This document shows positions 1-55,882 of a stretch of DNA of 64,000 nucleotides, in pieces (the stretch's first letter is position 1; each line of letters starts with the position of its first letter). The notes beneath the pieces are model-generated. The model saw nothing but the letters and a program-made list of their open reading frames with translations, was not told where the DNA came from and ran no database searches. The stretch is from Escherichia phage phiWec187. Location of the stretch: the sequence record LC739536.1; one strand, given 5' to 3'. A program made the translations under genes and the position numbers.

Positions 1-20
1 TTTTTTTAAGGAGTAAAACC

Positions 21-116
21 ATGCCCTATTTACATTTATTTTTCGGTATCTTATTGACAGGATCTTTTTTCTTCTGTATGCTTGTTTCTATTGTAAACCA
101 CGTTTTAAGACATTAA
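21..116 (+). CDS. small hydrophobic peptide (31 aa)
   Basis: ATG at 21 with AGGAG RBS upstream; hydrophobic ORF MPYLHLFFGILLTGSFFFCMLVSIVNHVLRH; below track size cutoff. Confidence 0.3.
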   Translation: MPYLHLFFGILLTGSFFFCMLVSIVNHVLRH

Positions 117-125
117 GGAAACAGC

Positions 126-245
126 ATGAAAATTATTCCCGTACAATATAGCGTAATAAATCCAGCATATGAGGAAGGAAGGAAAACAAGCATGGTTTTA
201 TGCTGTATTGCTACTATAGCCATGTTGTTATATATTGTGTTTTAA
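126..245 (+). CDS. small membrane peptide (39 aa)
   Basis: ATG at 126 with AAGGAA RBS; hydrophobic C-terminus MVLCCIATIAMLLYIVF. Confidence 0.3.
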   Translation: MKIIPVQYSVINPAYEEGRKTSMVLCCIATIAMLLYIVF

Positions 246-274
246 TAGGTTTTATAGTTGTACGCTTTAAAGGC

Positions 275-326
275 TTGACAATTTTTTGTTATGCTTTAAA
301 CTATATCTTGAAAACGGCAAAGGCCG
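275..326 (+). promoter_or_regulatory. sigma70-like promoter plus leader stem-loop
   Basis: -35 TTGACA 275-280, candidate -10 TAAACT 297-302; hairpin CGGC-AAAG-GCCG 315-326 before RBS. Confidence 0.4.
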
Positions 327-345
327 CAAACAAAAGGGTAAAATT

Positions 346-669
346 ATGAAATCTGTGATCGGTGTTTATTTGGATAACTCTGATTTTTTCTATCATCGCG
401 CTCGTTTCCTTGATGCGATTGAAATGATAGAATCAGGCTTTAAAGAGTATCGCCTTGCACATGATGACCTGGAAGCACTACAGGGCAATAGTGTTTTTAC
501 ATTGCAAGCGAAAGCACTATGCAAAAGCCGGATCGACATTGCGAGCAAAAATATAGAACGCGGCATGTCCTGGTTGCGCACCGCAGAAATCAACATGGGG
601 CAATGGTACGGCAAAAACTTAGAAAATAAACATACTTTTGTCAATGTAGAAAATATTGAAGATTATTGA
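346..669 (+). CDS. hypothetical protein
   Basis: track ORF 286-669 trimmed to in-frame Met21 (ATG 346) downstream of promoter and hairpin. Confidence 0.5.
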   Translation: MKSVIGVYLDNSDFFYHRARFLDAIEMIESGFKEYRLAHDDLEALQGNSVFTLQAKALCKSRIDIASKNIERGMSWLRTAEINMGQWYGKNLENKHTFVNVENIEDY

Positions 670-732
670 TTGACAGCACACCTGACAGATAGTATATTGT
701 ATCTCATAGAGCGGGGAAATGGTTTCCCGCTC
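670..732 (+). promoter_or_regulatory. sigma70-like promoter plus leader stem-loop
   Basis: -35 TTGACA 670-675, 17 bp spacer, -10 TATATT 693-698; hairpin GAGCGGGG-AAATGGTT-TCCCGCTC 709-732. Confidence 0.6.
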
Positions 733-751
733 ACAACAGAAGAGATAAGAT

Positions 752-1036
752 ATGAAAATCACAAAAGCACTTTCCAACTATGCAGCACGTCGCGGCTTAT
801 GCTTAACCGTTGAAAACTTAGGGAAAGAAGATTTTTTGTGCTTTTGGGAGCTTGAGAATGATAATGAGTGGATCTTCTCTTATTCTATCTGCGAAGATCA
901 AAACGGTTGTTTATTAACCTGGCGCGGTAATATCTATCTACCGGAAGAAATCAAAGAAGAATTGCCAGGCACGATCATGACTGAGAAACAGCTTAAGGAA
1001 GTGATTAATTTTGTAGGGCAAAACATTAAAAAATAA
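752..1036 (+). CDS. hypothetical protein
   Basis: track ORF; ATG 752 after AGAAGAGA RBS-like stretch and leader hairpin. Confidence 0.55.
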   Translation: MKITKALSNYAARRGLCLTVENLGKEDFLCFWELENDNEWIFSYSICEDQNGCLLTWRGNIYLPEEIKEELPGTIMTEKQLKEVINFVGQNIKK

Positions 1037-1037
1037 T

Positions 1038-1096
1038 TTGACACTAGGCAAACAACGTAGTAAAGTTTATCACATAGGGCGGCAATAGTGCCGCTC
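1038..1096 (+). promoter_or_regulatory. sigma70-like promoter plus leader stem-loop
   Basis: -35 TTGACA 1038-1043, 17 bp spacer, -10 TAAAGT 1061-1066; hairpin GGGCGGCA-ATAG-TGCCGCTC 1077-1096. Confidence 0.6.
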
Positions 1097-1117
1097 ATAA
1101 CAGAAGAGAAACAAATC

Positions 1118-1288
1118 ATGATCCCAACTATGTTTTATGTATCGCGCAAAGGTCACAATATTTTTTGGTCTGAAGATTTAAATGAAGCCATGACGTTTGC
1201 CCGTGATCGTGTTGCTATTGGTGGCGTTAATATCACCGTAACCGATGAAAACGGCATTGAATACTATAACGGCGACGATGAAGAGTAA
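1118..1288 (+). CDS. hypothetical protein
   Basis: track ORF 1088-1288 trimmed to Met11 (ATG 1118) downstream of hairpin. Confidence 0.5.
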   Translation: MIPTMFYVSRKGHNIFWSEDLNEAMTFARDRVAIGGVNITVTDENGIEYYNGDDEE

Positions 1289-1296
1289 TTAATGAG

Positions 1297-1317
1297 GCGG
1301 GGGAGTATTCCCCGCCG
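1297..1317 (+). promoter_or_regulatory. intercistronic GC-rich stem-loop
   Basis: GGCGGGGG-AGTATT-CCCCGCC between stop at 1288 and RBS of next gene; no T-run so not a terminator. Confidence 0.4.
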
Positions 1318-1335
1318 TCAATAAAGAGGTAAATC

Positions 1336-1605
1336 ATGAAAATATCATTGGACGTTGCAATCAAGGCCATCGAATCCGGTTACACCCTGGTAAAAGATGA
1401 TAAGGCTAAAATAGTGCATCTTGTTAACAAGGAAACAGGCGAAAGCATGATCACATATAAAGCCGCCTACTTTCTCCAATCAGTAGCAGATCCGCGCGTA
1501 CAACGCCAGGTTACAGCGGCTATTGCTAAAAAATTATGTGCTTTACAGGGCACAAGTTTTAACGAGATCGCCCCGTGTTTTGACTGGTCGAGCTTGAAAA
1601 AATAG
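1336..1605 (+). CDS. hypothetical protein
   Basis: track ORF; RBS AAGAGG 8 nt before ATG. Confidence 0.55.
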   Translation: MKISLDVAIKAIESGYTLVKDDKAKIVHLVNKETGESMITYKAAYFLQSVADPRVQRQVTAAIAKKLCALQGTSFNEIAPCFDWSSLKK

Positions 1606-1606
1606 T

Positions 1607-1668
1607 TTGACAATACGCGGTTATCTGGTAAAGTGTACTACATAGGGCGGGGCAATAAGGCAACGCCC
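1607..1668 (+). promoter_or_regulatory. sigma70-like promoter plus leader stem-loop
   Basis: -35 TTGACA 1607-1612, 16 bp spacer, -10 TAAAGT 1629-1634; hairpin GGGCGGGG...CAACGCCC 1645-1668. Confidence 0.6.
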
Positions 1669-1686
1669 ATTAATGAGGGTAGAATC

Positions 1687-1791
1687 ATGTTAGAGAAAAT
1701 TTTTACGGTTGTAGTAGTTGGCCTGGCGTTATCGGTTGGATTGGTTGCAACTATGGCTAACATGATCCTATCTTCCCACGGTATCGGCTAA
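1687..1791 (+). CDS. small hydrophobic peptide (34 aa)
   Basis: ATG 1687 after GAGGGT RBS; ORF MLEKIFTVVVVGLALSVGLVATMANMILSSHGIG. Confidence 0.3.
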   Translation: MLEKIFTVVVVGLALSVGLVATMANMILSSHGIG

Positions 1792-1805
1792 AAGAGAAAC
1801 ACAAC

Positions 1806-2192
1806 ATGAAAACAGAAATCATTATTGAAATCATCAACGGTTATAAAGAAGCCTTTATTTTTGCCGAACCAGCGACGGATCACAATGGGGAATATATTGA
1901 GAATCTAGACGATTATGATTTTTCTCCTAGCGCCCTGAAACGTATTACCAGCGATGTGACCGCCTTTTGTAGTGCCAATGTTGCCGCTATCTCTGAGGCA
2001 ATGAGCGACGGCGCTACAGCAAACCAGATCGGGAATGATTTACATTTTACCCGTAACGGTCACGGCGTAGGTTTTTGGGATCGCCCTGAAATATACACTA
2101 CTAACACCGCCAACCGTTTAACTGATGCAGCTAAATTAATGCCATTGGTGCATGCTTACATTGGTGAAGATAATTTGATTTATATTGAATAA
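1806..2192 (+). CDS. hypothetical protein
   Basis: track ORF; AAGAGAAA RBS-like region before ATG. Confidence 0.55.
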   Translation: MKTEIIIEIINGYKEAFIFAEPATDHNGEYIENLDDYDFSPSALKRITSDVTAFCSANVAAISEAMSDGATANQIGNDLHFTRNGHGVGFWDRPEIYTTNTANRLTDAAKLMPLVHAYIGEDNLIYIE

Positions 2193-2198
2193 AAAGTA

Positions 2199-2257
2199 TT
2201 GACACCGATCCCCAATATGTTACTATTTACCACGTAGGCGGGAAATGGTTTCCCGCC
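2199..2257 (+). promoter_or_regulatory. sigma70-like promoter plus leader stem-loop
   Basis: -35 TTGACA 2199-2204, 16 bp spacer, -10 TACTAT 2221-2226; hairpin GGCGGG-AAATGGTTT-CCCGCC 2237-2257. Confidence 0.6.
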
Positions 2258-2280
2258 AGGTAATCAAAAAGGTAAATACT

Positions 2281-2670
2281 ATGCGCAACCTGGTTTCTGT
2301 TTCTAACGTTGAAAAATTCCAATCTTTACAGGGTATCGTTAACAACGTAGCGCCTTTTTTAGTAAACGGCTTGATTGCAAAGATGAAAAATAAACATCAT
2401 GCGGCATGGTCTGCTTACTGCTTTGATAATGATGAAAAAGCGGCTGAAATGATGTTAAATATGCTGTTAGACAGTGTAGAATCATCTTTACCGGAAAACA
2501 TCGCAGAAGAGATCACCTATCGTTATAATATGGCGATCACTTATCAGGAGGTTGCACAATTCAACATGATGGATGATGACGAACAACAGGATCAAGAAAT
2601 GTTTTGGGAGTATGCAGATCGTCAATCGGCTTTTGATGAAAAGTTAGCGATGTATTATAACGAATATTAA
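2281..2670 (+). CDS. hypothetical protein
   Basis: track ORF 2245-2670 trimmed to Met13 (ATG 2281), RBS AAAGGT upstream. Confidence 0.5.
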   Translation: MRNLVSVSNVEKFQSLQGIVNNVAPFLVNGLIAKMKNKHHAAWSAYCFDNDEKAAEMMLNMLLDSVESSLPENIAEEITYRYNMAITYQEVAQFNMMDDDEQQDQEMFWEYADRQSAFDEKLAMYYNEY

Positions 2671-2686
2671 TACACGGTAGAAGAAA

Positions 2687-2711
2687 GGGGCGCACTAAGC
2701 GCCCTTTTTTG
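2687..2711 (+). terminator. rho-independent terminator
   Basis: GGGGCGC-ACTAA-GCGCCC hairpin followed by TTTTTTG. Confidence 0.7.
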
Positions 2712-3397
2712 TATTCTTTTTTCACGATGGAAACAACACGTAAAGAATAGGCGTAAAGGTGGCGTAAAACAGCCTAAAACCGATTATAACCGCTTAAACA
2801 AGGTATTAATGACTAATCACCTTGCCAGGATGAAAAAGCTGTTATAAAGCTGTTTAGAGCGTTTAGAGCACATAGGAAATAATTTGCTTTTTATCTTGCC
2901 TTTTATCCTGCTTTTGATTATTATTATGGAACGGGCGGCACCTGGGGACAGGGGAAGATAATCACCGGAAGATCCCGCTATATATTGATAGCTTCCACCT
3001 ATCAAAAACGTTCACCGAAAAAAGTGAATAGATCGCGGTATCGAGCTAATCAAGGAGCAGATGAATAACCATACCATGAAGATCATAAGGCGTTTACAAC
3101 GTGTTTTAGACCGCTTGTTTTTAATTTCTTCATGCAACTATCTGGCAAAAACAGCCTTTTTCTTGTCTTTCCTCTTAAATAATAATCATTCTCATTTATA
3201 GCTGATTATTTATGCAATAAACTGAATAATGTAATAATGATAATCATTCTTAACTTAAGACCATCTAACTTATAAAATAATAAGTTATCTAACTAAATTA
3301 AAACTAATTATCTTACTTTTATTTATAACATACTGTTACTATCTTATTGATAACCTTATATTAAACAACAATAAGCAATGTAAATCATTACTAAGCT

Positions 3398-3441
3398 AAC
3401 TATAATCTATCTAACCCTTAAAACTATAACTATAATCTATC
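3398..3441. repeat. direct repeat AACTATAATCTATC x2
   Basis: identical 14-mer at 3398-3411 and 3428-3441 in ORF-free AT-rich region. Confidence 0.7.
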
Positions 3442-3528
3442 GAATTGTTGCACAAAGTAACTATTAAATTGTTAGTAACATTGCTAAATAATTAATATCC
3501 TATCTATTTATGATCTAATCTTTACCTT

Positions 3529-3552
3529 CCTATTTATTACCTATTTATTACC
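3529..3552. repeat. tandem repeat CTATTTATTAC x2
   Basis: CCTATTTATTACCTATTTATTACC read directly. Confidence 0.7.
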
Positions 3553-3565
3553 TAACTAATCATTT

Positions 3566-3591
3566 CATACAGTAATCATTGCATACAGTAA
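3566..3591. repeat. direct repeat CATACAGTAA x2
   Basis: TCATACAGTAATCATTGCATACAGTAACT. Confidence 0.6.
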
Positions 3592-3640
3592 CTATAACAA
3601 GAAATATAATTCGCAAGCGTATCATTAGCAGCCTATGCCG

Positions 3641-3799
3641 GACACATAGGCGGCTAATAATAACGCAACTACACACCCCACATAATAACCATCACCGATA
3701 GTTATTATTTGTGTTTATGTAGCTTGCAACAATTGCAAGCGCAACAATATACATGGTATATTGTATCCCTTACATTGTTGCGGTGCGTTATTATTAGCT
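3641..3799. repeat. nested inverted repeats / palindromic region
   Basis: GCCTATG..CATAGGC; GCTTGCAA-CAA-TTGCAAGC; outer arms ATAATAACGCA (3661-3672) and TGCGTTATTAT (3786-3799). Confidence 0.6.
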
Positions 3800-4017
3800 A
3801 ATGTTTAGAACATTGGCTATAATATAAGCTAAGTAATAAGCTATGCAATAATAAACATGGCGAATAATGACACTGATGATCATAATGCGCCACCCTCCAG
3901 GGGGCGCTATGTGAACACAAAGAAATCTTTCTTGTCAAGAAAAATATCATCATTATTGCGCAAAATTATTTACATCTGAATAGATGATTTTTCATACTAT
4001 TGCCCCCATATAACTTA

Positions 4018-4072
4018 CTATTTGTTGCAATGTATTCCCCTATTTGTTGGATAAAACTATCCCTATTTGTTG
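4018..4072. repeat. iteron-like repeats CTATTTGTTG x3
   Basis: copies at 4018, 4040 and 4063, spacing 22-23 bp (about two helical turns). Confidence 0.65.
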
Positions 4073-4143
4073 AGCCTACTTTCTTAAAAGCGTAATAAAT
4101 CAGAATTATCTTGATTTTTAGGGCGTTTTATAGTACAGAAAGT

Positions 4144-4352
4144 ATGCAAATGATAATCATTATCAGCTATCTTCCACGGGTGGCACTATTTCACGCAGGA
4201 TCATTTCATTTGGCAAGGTGTATATAGATGTTTAGACTTGCCAAGCCATTGATTTACTTAGAATTTATCTGTTTTGTTGTGAGTAGTACCTTTCTTGCTC
4301 AGAAAATAATCAAAAGTCTTATAAGTCATTGAATGATAATGCAAATGATAAT
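4144..4352. repeat. dispersed direct repeat ATGCAAATGATAAT
   Basis: 14-mer at 4144-4157 and 4339-4352, each beside an imperfect palindrome TGATAATCATTATCA. Confidence 0.6.
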
Positions 4353-4820
4353 TATTCTCATTGATATTTGAGGGGGACGGGCGGCAGAAATCGGGGGGCG
4401 CTGAAAATCGCGTTAAGCACCTCTCGCAAGCGAGCAGTATTTTGCGGCAAGTTATTGATATTATTGACTTTACGCTTATGAAAAGGGGGTGTGTCGAAAT
4501 AAATCGGGTATACCGGAAAATTTTTGTGGCATAGATATTTATTTGTCTATATTATGTACAAAGAGGTGTGTTAAAAATAATAGGTATATATAGAATAATT
4601 GATAGGGAAATCCTATACTAATCCCTATACTAATTCCTCCATTAATGATGTTCCTATGTTACTGTTCTTGTAATAGATGAAAAGATGCTATATGATGTGT
4701 GGCATGAAACGTAAATTTATAAGATGCAAATAATGCTTGCATTGAATAGAAATGCCTGTACACTGTGTTCCATAAGATATGCAATATCGCGCATAACAAA
4801 ACTACTAATGAGAGGTGTAA

Positions 4821-5138
4821 ATGAGAACCTTAGCTTTGTATATTGATCCTCACTCCATTCGAGAAATGCGAGATGTACAACAGGATTATGAATTCTACCC
4901 AGAAATTTGTGAACGCTATGAAACTATTCTTAGTTCTGTAGAAGATCCAGATACCAGTGAAACAGGTGTTTCCCACTTACTGTGGATGTTGAATGAAGTT
5001 CAGGATGGGTGTAATGGTATGTCTGAAACCAAACGCCATCGTTGGCTAGGCTATATTCAGGGTGTTATGGTTATGAAAAACCTTATTACAGTGGATGATG
5101 AACGTAACGCTACACGCCCCGTCTTTAATGGAGCATAA
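4821..5138 (+). CDS. hypothetical protein
   Basis: track ORF; GAGAGGTG RBS before ATG; first gene after the noncoding region. Confidence 0.55.
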   Translation: MRTLALYIDPHSIREMRDVQQDYEFYPEICERYETILSSVEDPDTSETGVSHLLWMLNEVQDGCNGMSETKRHRWLGYIQGVMVMKNLITVDDERNATRPVFNGA

Positions 5139-5139
5139 C

Positions 5140-5355
5140 ATGAAAAGCATTCAGGTGTGTATTGAAAATAATTGTGGTTATCTGGGATTGACACACGTTG
5201 CTTTCCCTCTTATATTAGATGCCGATATCGCTTACAGCGGAGTTGCTTATGTGTCATTCAAGACAATGAGCCAAGTACCTGGCTGGAAGTGGGAAGTAGT
5301 TGATGTTGTTGAAGGAGAAGACTATGTTTTCCTTCCACACGAATATACTGTTTAA
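5140..5355 (+). CDS. hypothetical protein
   Basis: track ORF 5095-5355 trimmed to Met16 (ATG 5140) directly after upstream stop; GGAG RBS. Confidence 0.5.
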   Translation: MKSIQVCIENNCGYLGLTHVAFPLILDADIAYSGVAYVSFKTMSQVPGWKWEVVDVVEGEDYVFLPHEYTV

Positions 5356-5369
5356 AAGAGGAAAAGAAG

Positions 5370-5540
5370 ATGAATAAAGAGACTACTGTGTACTTAGTAA
5401 CAAAGAATACCCCAGGCTGGAGCCAATGCAGCACTGTACCTTATAAAATCTGTGCAACACTAGCACAACGTGCAGAAGCAGAAGTGAATGCCATGCAATA
5501 CAGCTATGGTGAAATCATTCCTTTTACTCTTGAACAATAA
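5370..5540 (+). CDS. hypothetical small protein (56 aa)
   Basis: ATG 5370 with AAAGAGGAAAAG RBS; not in track because under 60 aa. Confidence 0.45.
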   Translation: MNKETTVYLVTKNTPGWSQCSTVPYKICATLAQRAEAEVNAMQYSYGEIIPFTLEQ

Positions 5541-5551
5541 GGAGTTGTGTA

Positions 5552-6004
5552 ATGTTTGAAATTGGTAAAGTGTATCGTTTTAAGAACCCATCTTATATCC
5601 GTAAGTTTGCTAACGTGTCTGAGTGCAATAGCAGGATTGCTTCTTTTTTAGGTGATTCCTATTTTCGTGTATTAGATGTGGATGATTGGTATGGTGTCAC
5701 TGCTTTGCAATCCTTAGCAGGAGAACAAGAAATTATCGCTCAAAATGAAGGAGACTTTCTTCAGTGTTACACGTTGCTTGCAAAAAGTGAGTTTGAATAC
5801 TTTGTAGAAGTATTAGAAGAAGCACCAAAAAGTAAGCATGAAGAGAAATACCTGCTTGTAGTGGATGGAGTTCCGATCATGGAAACCATCTCCCGTGAGG
5901 AAGTTGAAAAAGAGGCGAAACGTTACAAGCTGGATCGTACACAGAGTGTAGTTGAAGTCTATTCTCTTGTTGGTGTTGCAGATATTAGTGTGAACATCGT
6001 ATAA
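5552..6004 (+). CDS. hypothetical protein
   Basis: track ORF; AAGGAG RBS. Confidence 0.6.
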   Translation: MFEIGKVYRFKNPSYIRKFANVSECNSRIASFLGDSYFRVLDVDDWYGVTALQSLAGEQEIIAQNEGDFLQCYTLLAKSEFEYFVEVLEEAPKSKHEEKYLLVVDGVPIMETISREEVEKEAKRYKLDRTQSVVEVYSLVGVADISVNIV

Positions 6005-6007
6005 TAT

Positions 6008-6220
6008 ATGTGTAATGACAGATACATTCTTCGTGTATCTGATAAGTCTCCTATGTTTGACTGGCGGGGCTGGTGGCTACTAGCTCCGATGCAAGGTCTG
6101 ACAGACGTGGAAAAGGAGGCTTATGTGTATACAAAAGAAGAGATAGAAGATAGTCTTTATTTGACAGATAACATTAAGAATGGTATCTTTGAGTGTAAAT
6201 TGAAAGGAGAGGAAGAATGA
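6008..6220 (+). CDS. hypothetical protein
   Basis: track ORF; stop/start overlap with next gene. Confidence 0.5.
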   Translation: MCNDRYILRVSDKSPMFDWRGWWLLAPMQGLTDVEKEAYVYTKEEIEDSLYLTDNIKNGIFECKLKGEEE

Positions 6221-6516
6221 CTATTACAGAAAAACTGCGCTGTATTGCAAAGCAAAGTGGAGAAGGTTTATGGTTTCCTATTGAGGAAATTATTCAGGAC
6301 TGTTATGATCAGGCTAAGACTGGCAAATACTCCAAAGCATTTAAACCGTCTGTTTTCGGTTTGGATGATTATCCAAAAAATGAACAAGCAAAGAAACGAC
6401 AAGTTGATTTGATTGATCTTGCTATGGAAGCACTACGAGAGCATGGGCTTAGTAAGGTGTATGCTTTAAACACCAAAGAGGGCTTTGTAGATTCAGTGAT
6501 CGTAGACTGGTATTAA
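6217..6516 (+). CDS. hypothetical protein
   Basis: track ORF; ATGA overlap with upstream gene. Confidence 0.55.
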   Translation: MTITEKLRCIAKQSGEGLWFPIEEIIQDCYDQAKTGKYSKAFKPSVFGLDDYPKNEQAKKRQVDLIDLAMEALREHGLSKVYALNTKEGFVDSVIVDWY

Positions 6517-6525
6517 GGAGAAGTC

Positions 6526-6894
6526 ATGCAAGAGAATAGTAAAGTGTGTAGCATGAAAAGCAGCCCTTATTTGCTACAATTTTATGAGTGGTGGTTAGAA
6601 CAAGAAGATACAAACTTTAGCAAAAAGCATTATGGTCTTTGCACGTGTCTTGTAGACTTCTTGTACAATATTGCTTGGATAAAAGATGTTGAGAATGTAT
6701 CAAAGCTCCAATCCTCTGTACGAGAGGAAATGAAGGAACAATTTAAGAAAGCGGGTTTGAACCATTTACATCCGTTTAATACGGATTTCTCGCACTACTT
6801 TACGGAAACAGAACTAGGCATTGCACACCTTAATAAAGAACGTGTACAATGGGTGATTGATCGTATTCGTGATATGGAGGAATACAATGGTTAA
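6526..6894 (+). CDS. hypothetical protein, paralog family A
   Basis: shares LLQFY, LxHLHPFN and HLNKERVxWV blocks with ORF 7518-8102. Confidence 0.55.
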   Translation: MQENSKVCSMKSSPYLLQFYEWWLEQEDTNFSKKHYGLCTCLVDFLYNIAWIKDVENVSKLQSSVREEMKEQFKKAGLNHLHPFNTDFSHYFTETELGIAHLNKERVQWVIDRIRDMEEYNG

Positions 6895-7105
6895 GTTTAA
6901 AACTTTCTGTGCAATCACTGTTTGTCTTATTCTTGCATACGTGTTATTCTCTAGTATCATTCGTTTAGGTGAGTATATGGCAAGAGAAGCTCGTGAAAGT
7001 GAAGCTAAAAAAGAACAGTGTATTGTGTTCAAGCATCAAAGAGATGCTGAAAAGTTTCTCGCACTTGATTGCAATCGCTATGTATCTTATCAAATGTATG
7101 AGTAA
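6887..7105 (+). CDS. small membrane protein, paralog family B
   Basis: track ORF trimmed to Met11 (GGAGGA RBS); N-terminal TM helix; C-terminal ExCIxxKHxxxAExFL block shared with ORF 11599-11823. Confidence 0.5.
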   Translation: MVKFKTFCAITVCLILAYVLFSSIIRLGEYMAREARESEAKKEQCIVFKHQRDAEKFLALDCNRYVSYQMYE

Positions 7106-7114
7106 GGAGGATTT

Positions 7115-7339
7115 ATGGTAAAACGTCTGGAATGGGATGCGTGTACTGCTCACGCTTGTCACTGCGATATTGTTGAAGATCCTAATGGAGAAATGGTGTA
7201 TTATGAAGATTACGAAGCATTGCACAATGCTGTGATTGCTTTGCTGGATGATATTAGCTCACGCTATCCAGGACAACAGTTTACGTGTCCACATATTCAA
7301 CTGTTAGCCAAACTTACGGAGTATCCAAGTGTTCCATAA
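7115..7339 (+). CDS. hypothetical Cys-rich protein, paralog family C
   Basis: CDIVxDPxGExV...DY block shared with ORF 12475-12747; AAGGAGGA RBS. Confidence 0.55.
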   Translation: MVKRLEWDACTAHACHCDIVEDPNGEMVYYEDYEALHNAVIALLDDISSRYPGQQFTCPHIQLLAKLTEYPSVP

Positions 7340-7340
7340 T

Positions 7341-7508
7341 ATGGGTGTCCCTGAACAACTCCTCTTTATTGTAGGACTAGTAGGCTTATTGGCGGCTGGC
7401 GCTAAAGCCGCTTCTCACACGCATCACATAATGTTAAGATTTCTATTCCTACTCCCTTCTATCCTCGTATTATTAGTCATACTGATCGACAACATTTTTC
7501 ACAATTAA
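7341..7508 (+). CDS. small membrane protein (55 aa)
   Basis: ATG 7341 right after upstream stop; two hydrophobic segments; no clear RBS. Confidence 0.3.
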   Translation: MGVPEQLLFIVGLVGLLAAGAKAASHTHHIMLRFLFLLPSILVLLVILIDNIFHN

Positions 7509-7517
7509 GGAGAGGTC

Positions 7518-8102
7518 ATGAGTAAAATTATACCAAGCAGTTATGAATTATTGCAGTTTTATGTATATTATATAGACTGGGTTACTAGATCGAATGTTAA
7601 AGACAATGCGATGTTTAGTAAAAGCATCTGTTTAACAGAAAGTATCTTCCGTTACTGGCACACAGGTAGAAAGTGTACACACAGTGAAGCTATGCGCATT
7701 GTAGGTGAATACCTGGAGCAATTGCAAAAAGCAGAGTTACCTGTCCTTCACCCATTCAATGAATCTAAAGAAGAATTAGAACAAGAATGTAAGGAAGGTA
7801 AGTGCCATTTGAATGAAAAACGTATCGAATGGGTAAGGCAACGTTTAGCCGATGCAGGAAAGCCTCCTAGTGACTCTGACTATACGTGGTATGATGTAGA
7901 GGGTTTAGTTCAAGGTTTTGAGGCTTGTGCTATAGATAATACCAACTTTGCCAAAGTTTTATGCGAGGCTTATGACCTGGCAGATAAAATCCGAAATCAT
8001 GGATGGAAACAAGAGCATAAAGAATCATATGAACGCCTTGACAAGATTTTCAAACAGATCTATTCTAACCACAAGAAGATGTTCCAAATGGAGGATGTGT
8101 AA
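7518..8102 (+). CDS. hypothetical protein, paralog family A
   Basis: AAGGAGAGG RBS; conserved blocks with ORF 6526-6894. Confidence 0.55.
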   Translation: MSKIIPSSYELLQFYVYYIDWVTRSNVKDNAMFSKSICLTESIFRYWHTGRKCTHSEAMRIVGEYLEQLQKAELPVLHPFNESKEELEQECKEGKCHLNEKRIEWVRQRLADAGKPPSDSDYTWYDVEGLVQGFEACAIDNTNFAKVLCEAYDLADKIRNHGWKQEHKESYERLDKIFKQIYSNHKKMFQMEDV

Positions 8103-8788
8103 TGAAAGAGATTATGTTTGAAGGGCATCGTTACGAAGTTCCAGACAATGCAAATTTCATGGCTCGTGATATCACTGGAGATGTGTTCTGGTTTGAAGAT
8201 GAACCTGTGTTTTCTTCGAACAAACACTGGTTTTCACAACAATCTTCTTCGGAAAATATGACTTTTGGCTACGTAGAGCCTAAAGTGCGCTGCAAAGCAG
8301 CTTCTTCTTTGGTAAAAATTTCCCAAGATGATCAAGAAAATACTCCAGATGTTGTTAGTGCACTACTGAAGTACATTGCAGAACTTGAGAAGAAAATTAA
8401 AGAAGCAGAAACTAAGGTGAAAGCACGATCAGCAATCATCGAAGCTATGTCTGAACGTATTTTAGAACTAGAAGATTTGTGTGGAGAGGCTTATCAAGTG
8501 GTCGGTGCACTGGCTTATGAAGCACAAATGTTTGAAACTTCAGAACAAGTTTCACATATGTTAGATAATTTAAGTGAATGTAAAATGATTCATGATGATG
8601 TATTGCCATTTTGTTGCAATGTTAACAAAACAGAGCAAACAGAAGATTCAGAAACAGTTTATGTTCCGCTGATGTGTGTTCCAGATCATCTAAAAGGTGT
8701 ATTCTCTTGTAAATGGTCACTGTTGAGCGTTACTAATTGTGGTGAAAACTATTCTGCCAACATTGAATTGCTAAAACACGTTAAATAA
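8102..8788 (+). CDS. hypothetical protein
   Basis: track ORF; start overlaps upstream stop; coiled-coil-like middle segment. Confidence 0.55.
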   Translation: MKEIMFEGHRYEVPDNANFMARDITGDVFWFEDEPVFSSNKHWFSQQSSSENMTFGYVEPKVRCKAASSLVKISQDDQENTPDVVSALLKYIAELEKKIKEAETKVKARSAIIEAMSERILELEDLCGEAYQVVGALAYEAQMFETSEQVSHMLDNLSECKMIHDDVLPFCCNVNKTEQTEDSETVYVPLMCVPDHLKGVFSCKWSLLSVTNCGENYSANIELLKHVK

Positions 8789-8798
8789 GGAGAGTAAT

Positions 8799-9203
8799 AT
8801 GTGGTCTGTTAAAATCAAATATAATGCGCAGTATTATGGTGGAAAGCCTTACGAAGTTGTTATTTGTGACTGTATCTCTAAAGAAGTTGCACAGCTTTGT
8901 GGCGCTGGTGTTAGTGAAGCTATGAACAAAATGCATAACTCTACTGTGCGTTACCTGGATCAAGATATTCCAGAAGATGTAAATGACTATGCTTACGAAG
9001 TTATTTACAGTGAAGGTAAGAAGCTCTCTATTGAAGATGCACTTAAAGCACTACCTGCTATGTGCAGCCCAACACCAGAAGCAGTTAAAGAGATTTTACC
9101 AGAATCCAACCCCGATGAATATGCTGCTATGGTTGCTTCGGACATGTGGAATCTCTGTCGAGAAACTATGATTAAAAATCTGGTGGAAATGGCGCATGAG
9201 TAA
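8799..9203 (+). CDS. hypothetical protein
   Basis: track ORF; AAGGAGAG RBS. Confidence 0.55.
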   Translation: MWSVKIKYNAQYYGGKPYEVVICDCISKEVAQLCGAGVSEAMNKMHNSTVRYLDQDIPEDVNDYAYEVIYSEGKKLSIEDALKALPAMCSPTPEAVKEILPESNPDEYAAMVASDMWNLCRETMIKNLVEMAHE

Positions 9204-55534: not shown

Positions 55535-55610
55535 GGTTCCATAGCTCACTGACGAGAGCGCACACCTCATAAGTGTCGAGGGCAGGGATTGTAACCCTGG
55601 GGAACCACCA
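55535..55610 (+). tRNA. tRNA-Met/Ile2 (anticodon CAT)
   Basis: acceptor GGTTCC/GGAACC, anticodon loop CTCATAA, encoded CCA; T-loop ATTGTAA atypical. Confidence 0.65.
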
Positions 55611-55641
55611 TTTAAAAGGAGGTGCTATGCATCTCCTATAT

Positions 55642-55728
55642 GCAAGTGTGGTGGAATTGGTGATACACATTGTGCTTAAAACGCAACGCTTAAATGCTTG
55701 AGGGTTCGAATCCCTCCACTTGCACCAA
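55642..55728 (+). tRNA. tRNA-Leu (anticodon TAA)
   Basis: acceptor GCAAGTG/CACTTGC, loop CTTAAAA, long variable arm, T-loop TTCGAAT, CCA. Confidence 0.8.
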
Positions 55729-55742
55729 AACCTAAAAATATC

Positions 55743-55771
55743 TTGACATTTACTTAGTTTTTTGTTATAGT
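55743..55771 (+). promoter_or_regulatory. sigma70-like promoter inside tRNA array
   Basis: -35 TTGACA 55743-55748, 17 bp spacer, -10 TATAGT 55766-55771. Confidence 0.55.
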
Positions 55772-55782
55772 TACTATGAAAA

Positions 55783-55864
55783 CGGGGTGTATCTCACCTG
55801 ACTTCTAATCAGGCGTTAACCGAGTAATTGGAGTATGCAGGTTCGAATCCTGTCACCCCGGCCA
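55783..55864 (+). tRNA. atypical tRNA-like gene (possible Arg, TCT)
   Basis: perfect acceptor CGGGGTG/CACCCCG, T-arm GCAGG-TTCGAAT-CCTGT, CCA; CCTGA-CTTCTAA-TCAGG arm too close to 5-prime end for a canonical cloverleaf. Confidence 0.4.
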
Positions 55865-55882
55865 AAAAGTTTTAAAAACTAC

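Follow-up and report, generated by a model that had tools for sequence, protein, structure and literature searches.

A gene-free region of Escherichia phage phiWec187 as the probable terminal-repeat and concatemer-junction region of a phi92-like genome

The subject of this analysis is a 2.1-kb gap between genes, positions 2713-4820, in a stretch of 64,000 nucleotides from Escherichia phage phiWec187 (record LC739536.1), which we refer to at its full length as the window. Searches with megablast and blastn against 50,697 phage records place the phage among the phi92-like myoviruses (subfamily Stephanstirmvirinae, genus Justusliebigvirus): its identity to Escherichia phages alia, Paula, arall, Eryne and others is 93-96%, and the genomes of this group measure approximately 147 kb. 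Upstream of the gap lie small genes on the + strand, each preceded by a near-consensus TTGACA promoter, and this block, which belongs to the right arm of the physical genome, is closed by an intrinsic terminator at 2682-2710 (+ strand; a 12-bp stem with six G-C pairs, followed by a T run), annotated at the homologous position in phage Paula. Downstream, the first gene starts with an ATG at 4821, and homologues of phi92 gp002-gp011 follow. The region itself has a GC content of 33%, as compared to 36-44% in its flanks, falling to 22% at 3150-3600, where a strong bias of C over G is also found; its description as AT-rich in a preliminary description of this DNA is thus borne out. The same description saw no credible open reading frame (ORF) between 2713 and 4820, which is correct inasmuch as none longer than 62 amino acids overlaps the region, and overlooks a plausible ORF of 46 codons at 3061-3201. 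No transfer RNA (tRNA) gene lies here, and an Rfam search of window positions 1-9000 at E <= 1 returned no match. In a scan for promoters and terminators, 27 promoter-like sites were found where 22.8 were expected, a number not above that in shuffled sequences.

What, then, is the purpose of 2.1 kb of non-coding DNA at this position? The answer comes mainly from phi92 itself, the record of which (NC_023693) is linear and carries a direct terminal repeat (DTR) of 343 bp, entered as DTR-L (PHI92_DTR-L) at 1-343 and as DTR-R (PHI92_DTR-R) at 148270-148612. Window positions 4073-4626 align with phi92 1-556 at 97.1% identity, and positions 2986-4415 match the last 1.4 kb of phi92, up to the final base of the record, and likewise the end of Salmonella phage UAB_1. 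In other words, by homology to phi92, a 343-bp DTR occupies positions 4073-4415, as the single copy expected in a collapsed or circularly opened sequence, and since the phi92 repeat maps there, two physical genome ends lie inside the region. A packaging-related function had been among the options of the preliminary description, and it is the one that the homology upholds. Related phages agree: Schickermooser (Phapecoctavirus) has an exact duplication of 329 bp at its record ends, a repeat given as 328 bp in the passage that mentions it (PMC6563267); for BME3, the corresponding passage gives 342 bp, determined with PhageTerm (PMC12210895); Stephanstirmvirinae genomes are said in a recent paper to "terminate with direct terminal repeats" (PMC12695924); and in the rV5-like phage LL12, at a greater distance, a repeat of 459 bp also falls into non-coding DNA (PMC6658697). 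Across eight phages, the DTR is 329-344 bp long and free of genes. We therefore consider it highly probable, judging by this homology, that the gap is the terminal-repeat, or concatemer-junction, region of a phi92-like phage with linear virion DNA. In particular, 2713-4072 is the non-coding tail of the right arm and 4416-4820 the left-arm leader in front of the first early genes. The DTR as such is already known from the annotation of relatives. A lambda-type cos site was also considered, and its cohesive ends are ruled out by the exact 329-343-bp terminal duplications in the relatives.

The preliminary description had also spoken of T5-like gene content and, on that premise, of an injection-stop region. 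A first-step-transfer region of the T5 type shares with this locus a general likeness, namely that of a repeat-rich non-coding stretch near a genome end. That said, all close relatives found are Stephanstirmvirinae, no T5 homology was found, and the terminal repeat of T5, which is approximately 10 kb long and carries the pre-early genes, contrasts with a gene-free repeat of 0.34 kb here. Both the taxonomy and the repeat length contradict the T5 premise, and we regard this explanation as extremely improbable.

The two edges of the DTR carry the same 7-bp motif with the same internal cut position (marked by a bar), conserved across three lineages. The left boundary motif, GTTG|AGC, lies at 4069-4075 (+ strand), the left end of the genome beginning with A4073, and the right one, GTTA|AGC, at 4412-4418 (+ strand), with A4415 as the right end. 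The records of phi92 and Schickermooser start with AGC directly after GTTG, and those of phi92, UAB_1 and Schickermooser end in ...CGCGTTA, the GTTA standing directly before AGC. The left edge, TGTTGAGC, is invariant in nine of nine aligned phages; the right edge, TCGCGTTAAGCA, is invariant or nearly so in all lineages, and its surroundings, GAAAATCGCGTTAAGCAC (4403-4420), are near-invariant across genera. By itself, GTTRAGC is not rare in the window (10 matches, with 14 expected), so recognition must involve the conserved context. Three copies of CTATTTGTTG lead up to the left edge within 4018-4072 (+ strand; copies at 4018, 4040 and 4063, spaced by 22 and 23), and only the third of these, which abuts the DTR, is conserved: there are three copies in the window, two in phi92 and one each in arall and Paula, while Klebsiella phage KP13-26 has three copies of TGTTGAGC in their place. 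The three phased copies are, in this sense, extra copies of the left-edge sequence, variable in number, and not a conserved iteron array.

Inside the repeat, the layout is fixed, with two Fur-box-like palindromes on either side of a central IHF consensus. The centre of the DTR is taken up by a hairpin, TTGGCAAG...CTTGCCAA, followed by the IHF consensus WATCAANNNNTTR (minus strand, 4242-4254), the whole spanning 4210-4254. This consensus is kept in eight of eight phages and retained at the DTR midpoint in all lineages despite diverging flanks; from its centre, the left cut is 164-176 bp away and the right cut 164-168 bp. For the first palindrome, the distance between centre and left cut is 84-86 bp in Justusliebigvirus and in Phapecoctavirus, as compared to 112 bp in KP13-26, and the centre of the second one lies 62-66 bp from the right cut in every lineage. 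Each palindrome is part of a larger module on the + strand. Module F3 (4144-4185) consists of ATGCAA, a perfect 7-1-7 Fur box TGATAATCATTATCA (4151-4165), TATCTT and ACGGGTGGCA; module F4 (4339-4386) consists of ATGCAA, a Fur-like box TGATAATTATTCTCA (4346-4360), GATATT and ACGGGCGGCA, and the CATTGATATTTGAGG block at F4 is invariant across genera.

The surroundings of the DTR are conserved in a similarly selective manner. An ORF-free gap is present at the same position in phAPEC8, Schickermooser, phiWec186, PsgM04F, KP13-26, Citrobacter phage Tr1, nieznany, EF1-1 and AV125, measuring approximately 1.2-2.0 kb in the four of these in which its boundaries were read (phAPEC8, phiWec186, KP13-26 and Schickermooser), and a search of IMG/VR for related loci returned two; a 16-mer scan of genome contigs proved too unspecific, with matches by chance in unrelated bacteria. 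In an alignment of nine phages, 25% of the columns are invariant, and long segments are only some 60-65% identical in pairwise blastn comparisons. The islands of conservation are both repeat edges, the four palindromes, and the blocks 3624-3800, 4321-4373 and 4593-4608.

This pattern bears directly on the possibility that the region is, or also contains, a replication origin, with an AT-rich unwinding segment and iterons bound by an initiator. The preliminary description had named such an origin as one of its options, and the repeats that it listed are all indeed present where it had placed them: an 18-nt direct repeat at 3397/3427, a tandem array of CCTATTTATTA in 2.4 copies at 3529-3554, the CTATTTGTTG copies discussed above, ATGCAAATGATAAT at 4144 and 4339, and nested inverted repeats, such as 3653-3667 with 3784-3798 (15/15 complementary). 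What is more, direct repeats are significantly enriched, with 34 repeated 10-mers in the region as compared to 8.1 +/- 3.8 after dinucleotide shuffling of the region (maximum 19) and 8.2 +/- 4.1 in other stretches of 2.1 kb; for inverted 10-mers, a crude count does not exceed composition-matched chance. The GC content of 22-23% at 3150-3600 would suit an unwinding element, unspecific as this feature is, the cumulative GC skew has a local dip here, and an Escherichia coli island that shares motifs with the region (see below) has an iteron-rich non-coding block of its own. On the other hand, no DnaA box was found in 2713-4820, either as TTATCCACA with at most one mismatch or as TTWTNCACA (1.25 and 0.46 expected, respectively); the iterons change in copy number or vanish altogether among relatives that are 93-96% identical; Phapecoctavirus lacks the AT-rich core at 3430-3580; both flanks have a positive skew, with no switch of polarity; and what is conserved are the DTR edges, the palindromes and a folded element, and not the repeats. 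An origin at this place, or one residing alongside the genome ends, is consequently unlikely in our judgment, and the short "iterons" are variable by-products or spacers rather than the functional core.

The folded element just mentioned corresponds to the nested inverted repeats at 3641-3799, for which the capacity to form a large cruciform had been proposed, a proposal that has held up well: the block is a conserved, covarying element of four helices and roughly 180 nt, at 3631-3798. Its helices are P1 (3631-3637 with 3645-3651), P2 (3653-3667 with 3784-3798), P3 (3685-3693 with 3697-3705) and P4 (3722-3729 with 3733-3740; invariant GCTTGCAA nnn TTGCAAGC). The helix coordinates come from an alignment of 18 sequences, complemented by a second alignment of 25 sequences (23 distinct), drawn from phage records, IMG/VR and metagenomes. 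Over the 23 distinct sequences, 98.4% of the cells are paired, and 13 pairs, with a total of 76 cells, exhibit compensatory double changes; none of 500 shuffles paired as well, slid controls collapsed, and an independent MAFFT alignment gave the same four helices. It is this covariation, and not the count of 10-mers, that validates the inverted-repeat block. There is one copy of the element in each phage locus searched, and nothing else in the region is as well conserved in Citrobacter phage Tr1, the most distant of the relatives; a covariance-model search yielded no further copy in the window, in a Vequintavirinae locus or in the E. coli islands. Of the further helices considered, P5 and P6, the hand-drawn P5 was paired in only 56% of the cells owing to alignment shifts and was dropped, as were three metagenome matches to the P4 palindrome (L020, L023 and L029), which proved unrelated.

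Does this element act as RNA or as DNA? It contains no G-U pairs and no one-sided changes, and its few mismatches are of the C-A type on the + strand. The DNA-fold z-scores are -7.6 for the + strand and -8.0 for the minus strand, meaning that both strands fold equally well, and neither a consensus scan nor the alignment revealed a conserved promoter or terminator around it, nor did Rfam contain a match. Given the absence of G-U pairs, the foldability of both strands and the lack of a promoter or terminator, we read it as a structure at the level of DNA, and the data favor a DNA hairpin or cruciform, or else a fold of single-stranded DNA for which either strand could serve. A structured non-coding RNA is the less favored candidate: the helices do covary, but there is no G-U signature, no strand preference and no Rfam match. 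As a separate observation, other genera have many copies of TTATTAGC, which equals the outer half of P2, between the folded element and the repeat (at least six in KP13-26, L009 3200-3560; also phAPEC8, L006 4380-4500), which could point to a protein site overlapping with the structure at its base; in phiWec187, TTATTAGC is not enriched window-wide.

Turning to the palindromes, their likeness to Fur boxes is pronounced. Compared with the classical Fur box of E. coli, GATAATGATAATCATTATC, 17 of 19 positions agree at 4146-4164; the 7-1-7 core TGATAATNATTATCA is matched there at 15 of 15 (4151-4165), and 4341-4359 match GATAATGATAATCATTATC at 15 of 19. Two further palindromes lie approximately 850 bp upstream, namely F1 (TAATAATCATTCTCA; 3180-3194, + strand), the syntenic site of which in Phapecoctavirus, TGATAACCATTATCA, is one mismatch away from the 7-1-7 consensus, and F2 (TGATAATCATTCTTA; 3238-3252, + strand), which matches GATAATGATAATCATTATC at 16 of 19 positions (3233-3251) and is partly conserved in other genera. 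The sites at 3180, 3238 and 4346 deviate from the 7-1-7 core by one or two mismatches. Five of the six Fur-like boxes in the window fall within the region, where 0.89 would be expected, and in 500 composition-matched shuffles of the region the mean number of Fur-box matches was 0.19, as compared to 10 observed (both strands), with a perfect site in none of the 500. Fur-like sites are kept at syntenic positions in other genera. Moreover, at least F1, F3 and F4 share a rightward module of RTGCAA, box, 2 nt and a -10-like hexamer. At F3 and F4, the box forms the 18-nt spacer and RTGCAA is clear; at F1, RTGCAA is clear only in Phapecoctavirus. The decamer ACGGGYGGCA, found after the module at F3 and F4, occurs three times in the 64-kb window, always in the region. 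The Fur-box consensus and the architecture of Fur-repressed promoters are well established, and the arrangement of the F modules resembles that of such a promoter; the binder could be host Fur, a phage protein, or both.

One could argue that the core of the region is regulatory: Fur-repressed rightward promoters F1-F4 would drive iron-responsive transcripts, including a non-coding RNA with the folded element and early leaders, and the DTR would merely overlap with them. Such an arrangement would be compatible with a terminal-repeat region. It draws on the four or five sites that match the Fur consensus, one of them perfectly, and which all share one orientation and one arrangement with respect to -35-like and -10-like hexamers, on the presence of ACGGGYGGCA after three promoter-like sites and nowhere else in the window, on the conservation of the boxes across genera, and on the position of the strongly covarying folded element downstream of F1 and F2. 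Against this, the hexamers are weak, and the scan gave only minus-strand candidates at F3 and F4; no terminator follows the folded element and Rfam has no match to it; the absence of G-U pairs among the 76 compensatory cells and the few C-A mismatches on the + strand both argue against a + strand RNA; and the constant distances from box to cut fit an architectural role at least equally well. On balance, we find the regulatory explanation doubtful, if somewhat less so than a replication origin.

An unexpected line of evidence for the terminal-repeat reading comes from the bacterial side. Of 5426 complete E. coli genomes, 505, or about 9%, contain a match of 46-48 bp, at 92-96% identity, to window positions 4388-4435 (blastn), where the right cut site lies. 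In the two chromosomal loci that were aligned (L030 7949-8046 and L031 14968-15046), the similarity covers approximately 80-100 bp, from TGATATTTGGGG to beyond GTTA|AGC, and the spacing from TGATATTTGRGG to the cut is, by hand count, 42 nt in both island and phage. Eight loci with flanking DNA were available, two of them chromosomal and six from IMG/VR (among L032-L045), and in all eight the right-end block lies within a conserved island; six keep most or all of the gene order, and M8 is degraded. The island measures about 13.5 kb in one example, from integrase to tRNA, and adjoins tRNA-Thr or tRNA-Leu. Its order is: integrase, Dit-like tail protein, a 609-residue tape-measure-like protein, a major capsid protein (Pfam Phage_cap_E, lambda-E-type), small ORFs, a regulator, a 2-3-kb non-coding block packed with iterons, an optional invertase, and the phage-like site. 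It also has a look-alike of the central hairpin and IHF site of the DTR, as well as tandem repeats of the CTATTTAT type; in the loci searched, it has neither Fur-like boxes nor the folded element. Satellites such as P4 and the phage-inducible chromosomal islands (PICIs) copy the packaging signals (cos or pac) of their helpers. Since satellites mimic helper packaging signals in this way, the copy of the right-end block provides indirect support for a cut signal, and we suggest, counting the island as such support, that the block 4362-4435 may be the functional recognition and cut signal. The island itself, as far as its sequence allows one to say, could represent a satellite of phi92-like phages, or a decoy for them, that has so far not been described.

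How would such a region work? Replication would yield concatemers with one repeat per junction, and on this repeat a nucleoprotein complex would assemble in which one or more proteins bound to the palindromes flank an IHF-type bend. The complex would position the terminase, which DNA-bending or architectural proteins at the palindromes and at the IHF site would probably assist, so that it nicks or cuts at GTTR|AGC on both sides, and the repeat would be duplicated through strand-displacement or primed synthesis, as proposed for T7, for which a model of repeat duplication with a hairpin intermediate exists (PMC4281155). The folded element near the right end could act on the DNA level, be it as a hairpin or cruciform intermediate, as a structure to be recognised, or in priming. 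Upon infection, the Fur-box modules of the incoming genome could serve as additional weak rightward early promoters under the control of host Fur and iron. Each of these steps is much less certain than the terminal-repeat reading as such. A bolder version, which we put forward as speculative and rather improbable in its entirety, is that Fur, and probably IHF, occupy the position-locked DTR sites so that iron status gates the first transcription or the cutting, and that the cut signal TGATATTTGRGG-N42-GTTA|AGC has been copied by an island family that is an unrecognised satellite or decoy of virulent phi92-like myoviruses.

That said, it should be noted that several observations weigh against the scheme, or at least against parts of it. 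The ends of this particular phage are placed by homology to its relatives, and roughly 1 kb of the region (3255-3616 and 3800-4017) is left without an assigned role. A phage protein, for example the small terminase subunit, is as plausible a candidate for binding to the palindromes as is Fur; what is more, the -35 and -10 hexamers of the Fur modules match at only three to four of six positions and were not called on the + strand by the consensus scan. The distance between the folded element, which lies to the left of the DTR, and the repeat varies between 190 and 460 bp, and its role is deduced only from its position and from Watson-Crick-only covariation. Finally, the island has no correctly placed left-edge motif, only the right-edge block having been copied, and it may mimic a promoter or a leader instead of a packaging site.

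The remaining parts of the region consist of variable and partly conserved non-coding DNA on either side of the elements discussed so far. At its upstream end, a promoter-like site, TTGCCT-17-TATTAT, is followed by a conserved leader of about 80 nt (together 2896-3006, + strand), with ACGGGCGGCA at its beginning and the palindrome TGATAG-N7-CTATCA (2986-3004) at its end. This unit is 83-87% identical in Phapecoctavirus and approximately 74-84% identical in Vequintavirinae, where the neighboring DNA fails to align. The leader-like element after the promoter, 2911-2991 (GAACGGGCGGCACCTGGGG...CCGCTATATATTGATAG), is about 84% identical in rV5-like Vequintavirinae (L012 2976-3101) and contains one covarying GC/AU pair; it could function as a conserved 5' leader or in protein binding. 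In relatives, the unit precedes cassettes of the gp248 type, absent in phiWec187, and a 21-bp direct repeat of the TGATAGCTTCCACCTATCAAA type brackets such a cassette (L001 4387-4407 and 4971-4991), while here a single copy is present at 2986-3006. A single repeat without a cassette points to cassette gain or loss via recombination between promoter-proximal repeats, and phiWec187 has probably lost its gp248-type cassettes in this manner. The exact palindrome TGATAG-N7-CTAT occurs in the 64-kb window only at 2986 and 4600, thus bracketing the region, and the motif shows no overall enrichment window-wide.

Next to this lies the possible gene of 46 amino acids (MNNHTMKIIRRLQRVLDRLFLISSCNYLAKTAFFLSFLLNNNHSHL; 3061-3201, + strand), preceded by an AAGGAG ribosome-binding site and left unannotated in phi92, arall and Paula. 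Besides the window, six further Justusliebigvirus sequences were compared, and the frame is uninterrupted in all of them; its first 23 residues are invariant, and its substitutions fall at the three codon positions in the ratio 14/5/25, i.e., with an excess at the third; in Phapecoctavirus, the start codon and the ribosome-binding site are absent. The C-terminal half of the product is hydrophobic, and the stop region of the frame overlaps with the Fur-like box F1. The stretch from 3255 to 3616 is a G-poor, AT-rich variable spacer (GC content 22%, GC skew about -0.5) with repeats at 3397/3427, 3499-3554 and 3557-3591. It is poorly conserved, 3430-3580 being absent in Phapecoctavirus and one CCTATTTATTA unit being lost in phi92, arall and Paula. 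Beyond the DTR, the unique non-coding leader of the left end (4416-4820, + strand) includes a second IHF-like site (4448-4460), a conserved promoter-like block (4571-4599), the palindrome TGATAGGGAAATCCTAT (4600-4616) and a tandem CCTATACTAATC (4612-4638).

Could all of this simply be a graveyard of lost cassettes, that is, decaying and largely functionless DNA with perhaps a few very small genes? In relatives, between one and four additional cassettes of small genes are indeed found at window positions ~3006 and ~4722, and those bounded by the 21-bp repeat speak for gain and loss; large parts of the region are poorly conserved, and the 46-residue frame is plausible. At the same time, a non-coding core of approximately 1.2-2.0 kb is present in every lineage measured, and invariant blocks, position-locked sites and a covarying structure are not what one expects of decaying DNA. 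We hold this explanation to be very unlikely, though not as far-fetched as an injection-stop region of the T5 type.

Three observations from the wider window and the database deserve to be mentioned in their own right. Near-consensus sigma-70 promoters (TTGACA-16/17-TAxxxT), each in front of a small gene on the + strand, are found at 1-2230 and 5188-5216, some of them sitting within terminator hairpins, and this series is typical of the organisation of early-gene cassettes. The 15 tRNA genes of the window are clustered at 55535-58453 (+ strand), with two each for tRNA-Met, tRNA-Leu and tRNA-Ser. Finally, the records MG065639, MG065645, MG065656 and MG065689 ("Campylobacter phage") and OR584014 ("Pseudomonas phage PsgM04F") are 93-95% identical to, or clear members of, the Justusliebigvirus/Phapecoctavirus phages of E. 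coli; either their hosts have probably been mislabelled, or contaminants were isolated.

At a coarse level, a short-terminal-repeat end is an ordinary finding, and knowing of it allows the genome to be opened and annotated correctly. Beyond this, GTTR|AGC together with a compact candidate packaging signal of about 350 bp can be tested in broad-host-range therapeutic phages. If Fur and IHF act at the genome ends, the availability of iron in the gut would be linked to phage development, and a widespread island of E. coli could be exploiting or sabotaging such phages, which would be relevant to phage therapy and to satellites of virulent phages in general. In the records of phi92 and its relatives, and in the passages of papers that mention the repeat, only its length or a repeat_region feature is given. 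In the parts of the literature searched, a scope that leaves the original phi92 paper outside, neither the GTTR|AGC edges and the palindrome-IHF-palindrome layout nor the likeness of the palindromes to Fur boxes, the covarying four-helix element or an island copying the right-end signal were found described, and searches for Fur boxes in phage terminal repeats, for transcriptomes of these phages and for satellites of Stephanstirmvirinae returned nothing relevant.

Among known systems, the T7/T3 junction is similar in that it also has a short non-coding terminal repeat, short repeats that abut it, and an inverted-repeat structure a few hundred bp to the left of the right-end repeat; the repeat arrays of T7 and the position of its hairpin were reportedly described by Dunn & Studier in 1983 and by Chung, Nardone & Hinkle in 1990. 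Both T7 and the phi92-like phage, the latter, in contrast to T7, a myovirus of 148 kb, need to duplicate their repeat (PMC4281155). Unlike in T7, with which there is no sequence relationship, one finds here a 7-bp motif shared by both edges, the palindrome-IHF-palindrome layout and a four-helix element closed by a stem of 15 bp, the functions of which are predicted from sequence. The cosB site of lambda offers a possible parallel of a different kind, namely repeated protein sites that flank an IHF bend site beside the terminase cut, the sites for protein and IHF being putative in the present case. In lambda cosB, the R sites of the terminase small subunit flank the IHF site I1. Lambda has cohesive ends of 12 nt, whereas here the repeat is 343 bp long, the palindromes are Fur-operator-like, and two cuts lie approximately 165 bp to either side of the IHF site.

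In Fur-repressed promoters of E. coli and in the phage-borne stx1, a box is located between -35-like and -10-like hexamers, as is the case here; unlike in those promoters, the candidate boxes are found in the DTR of a virulent phage, with weak hexamers and without a downstream iron gene. The E. coli island resembles P4 and the PICIs in being a small integrative element beside a tRNA gene with a near-exact copy of the block around a phage's right-end cut, and differs from them in that its presumed helper is virulent and of the DTR type, in that it has its own capsid gene, no recognisable terminase and a copy of one edge only, and in that it is known here from sequence alone. As for the repeat at 4073-4415, its counterparts in phi92 and in the relatives Schickermooser, BME3 and UAB_1, with homologous sequence, the same length and the same edges, are one and the same feature.

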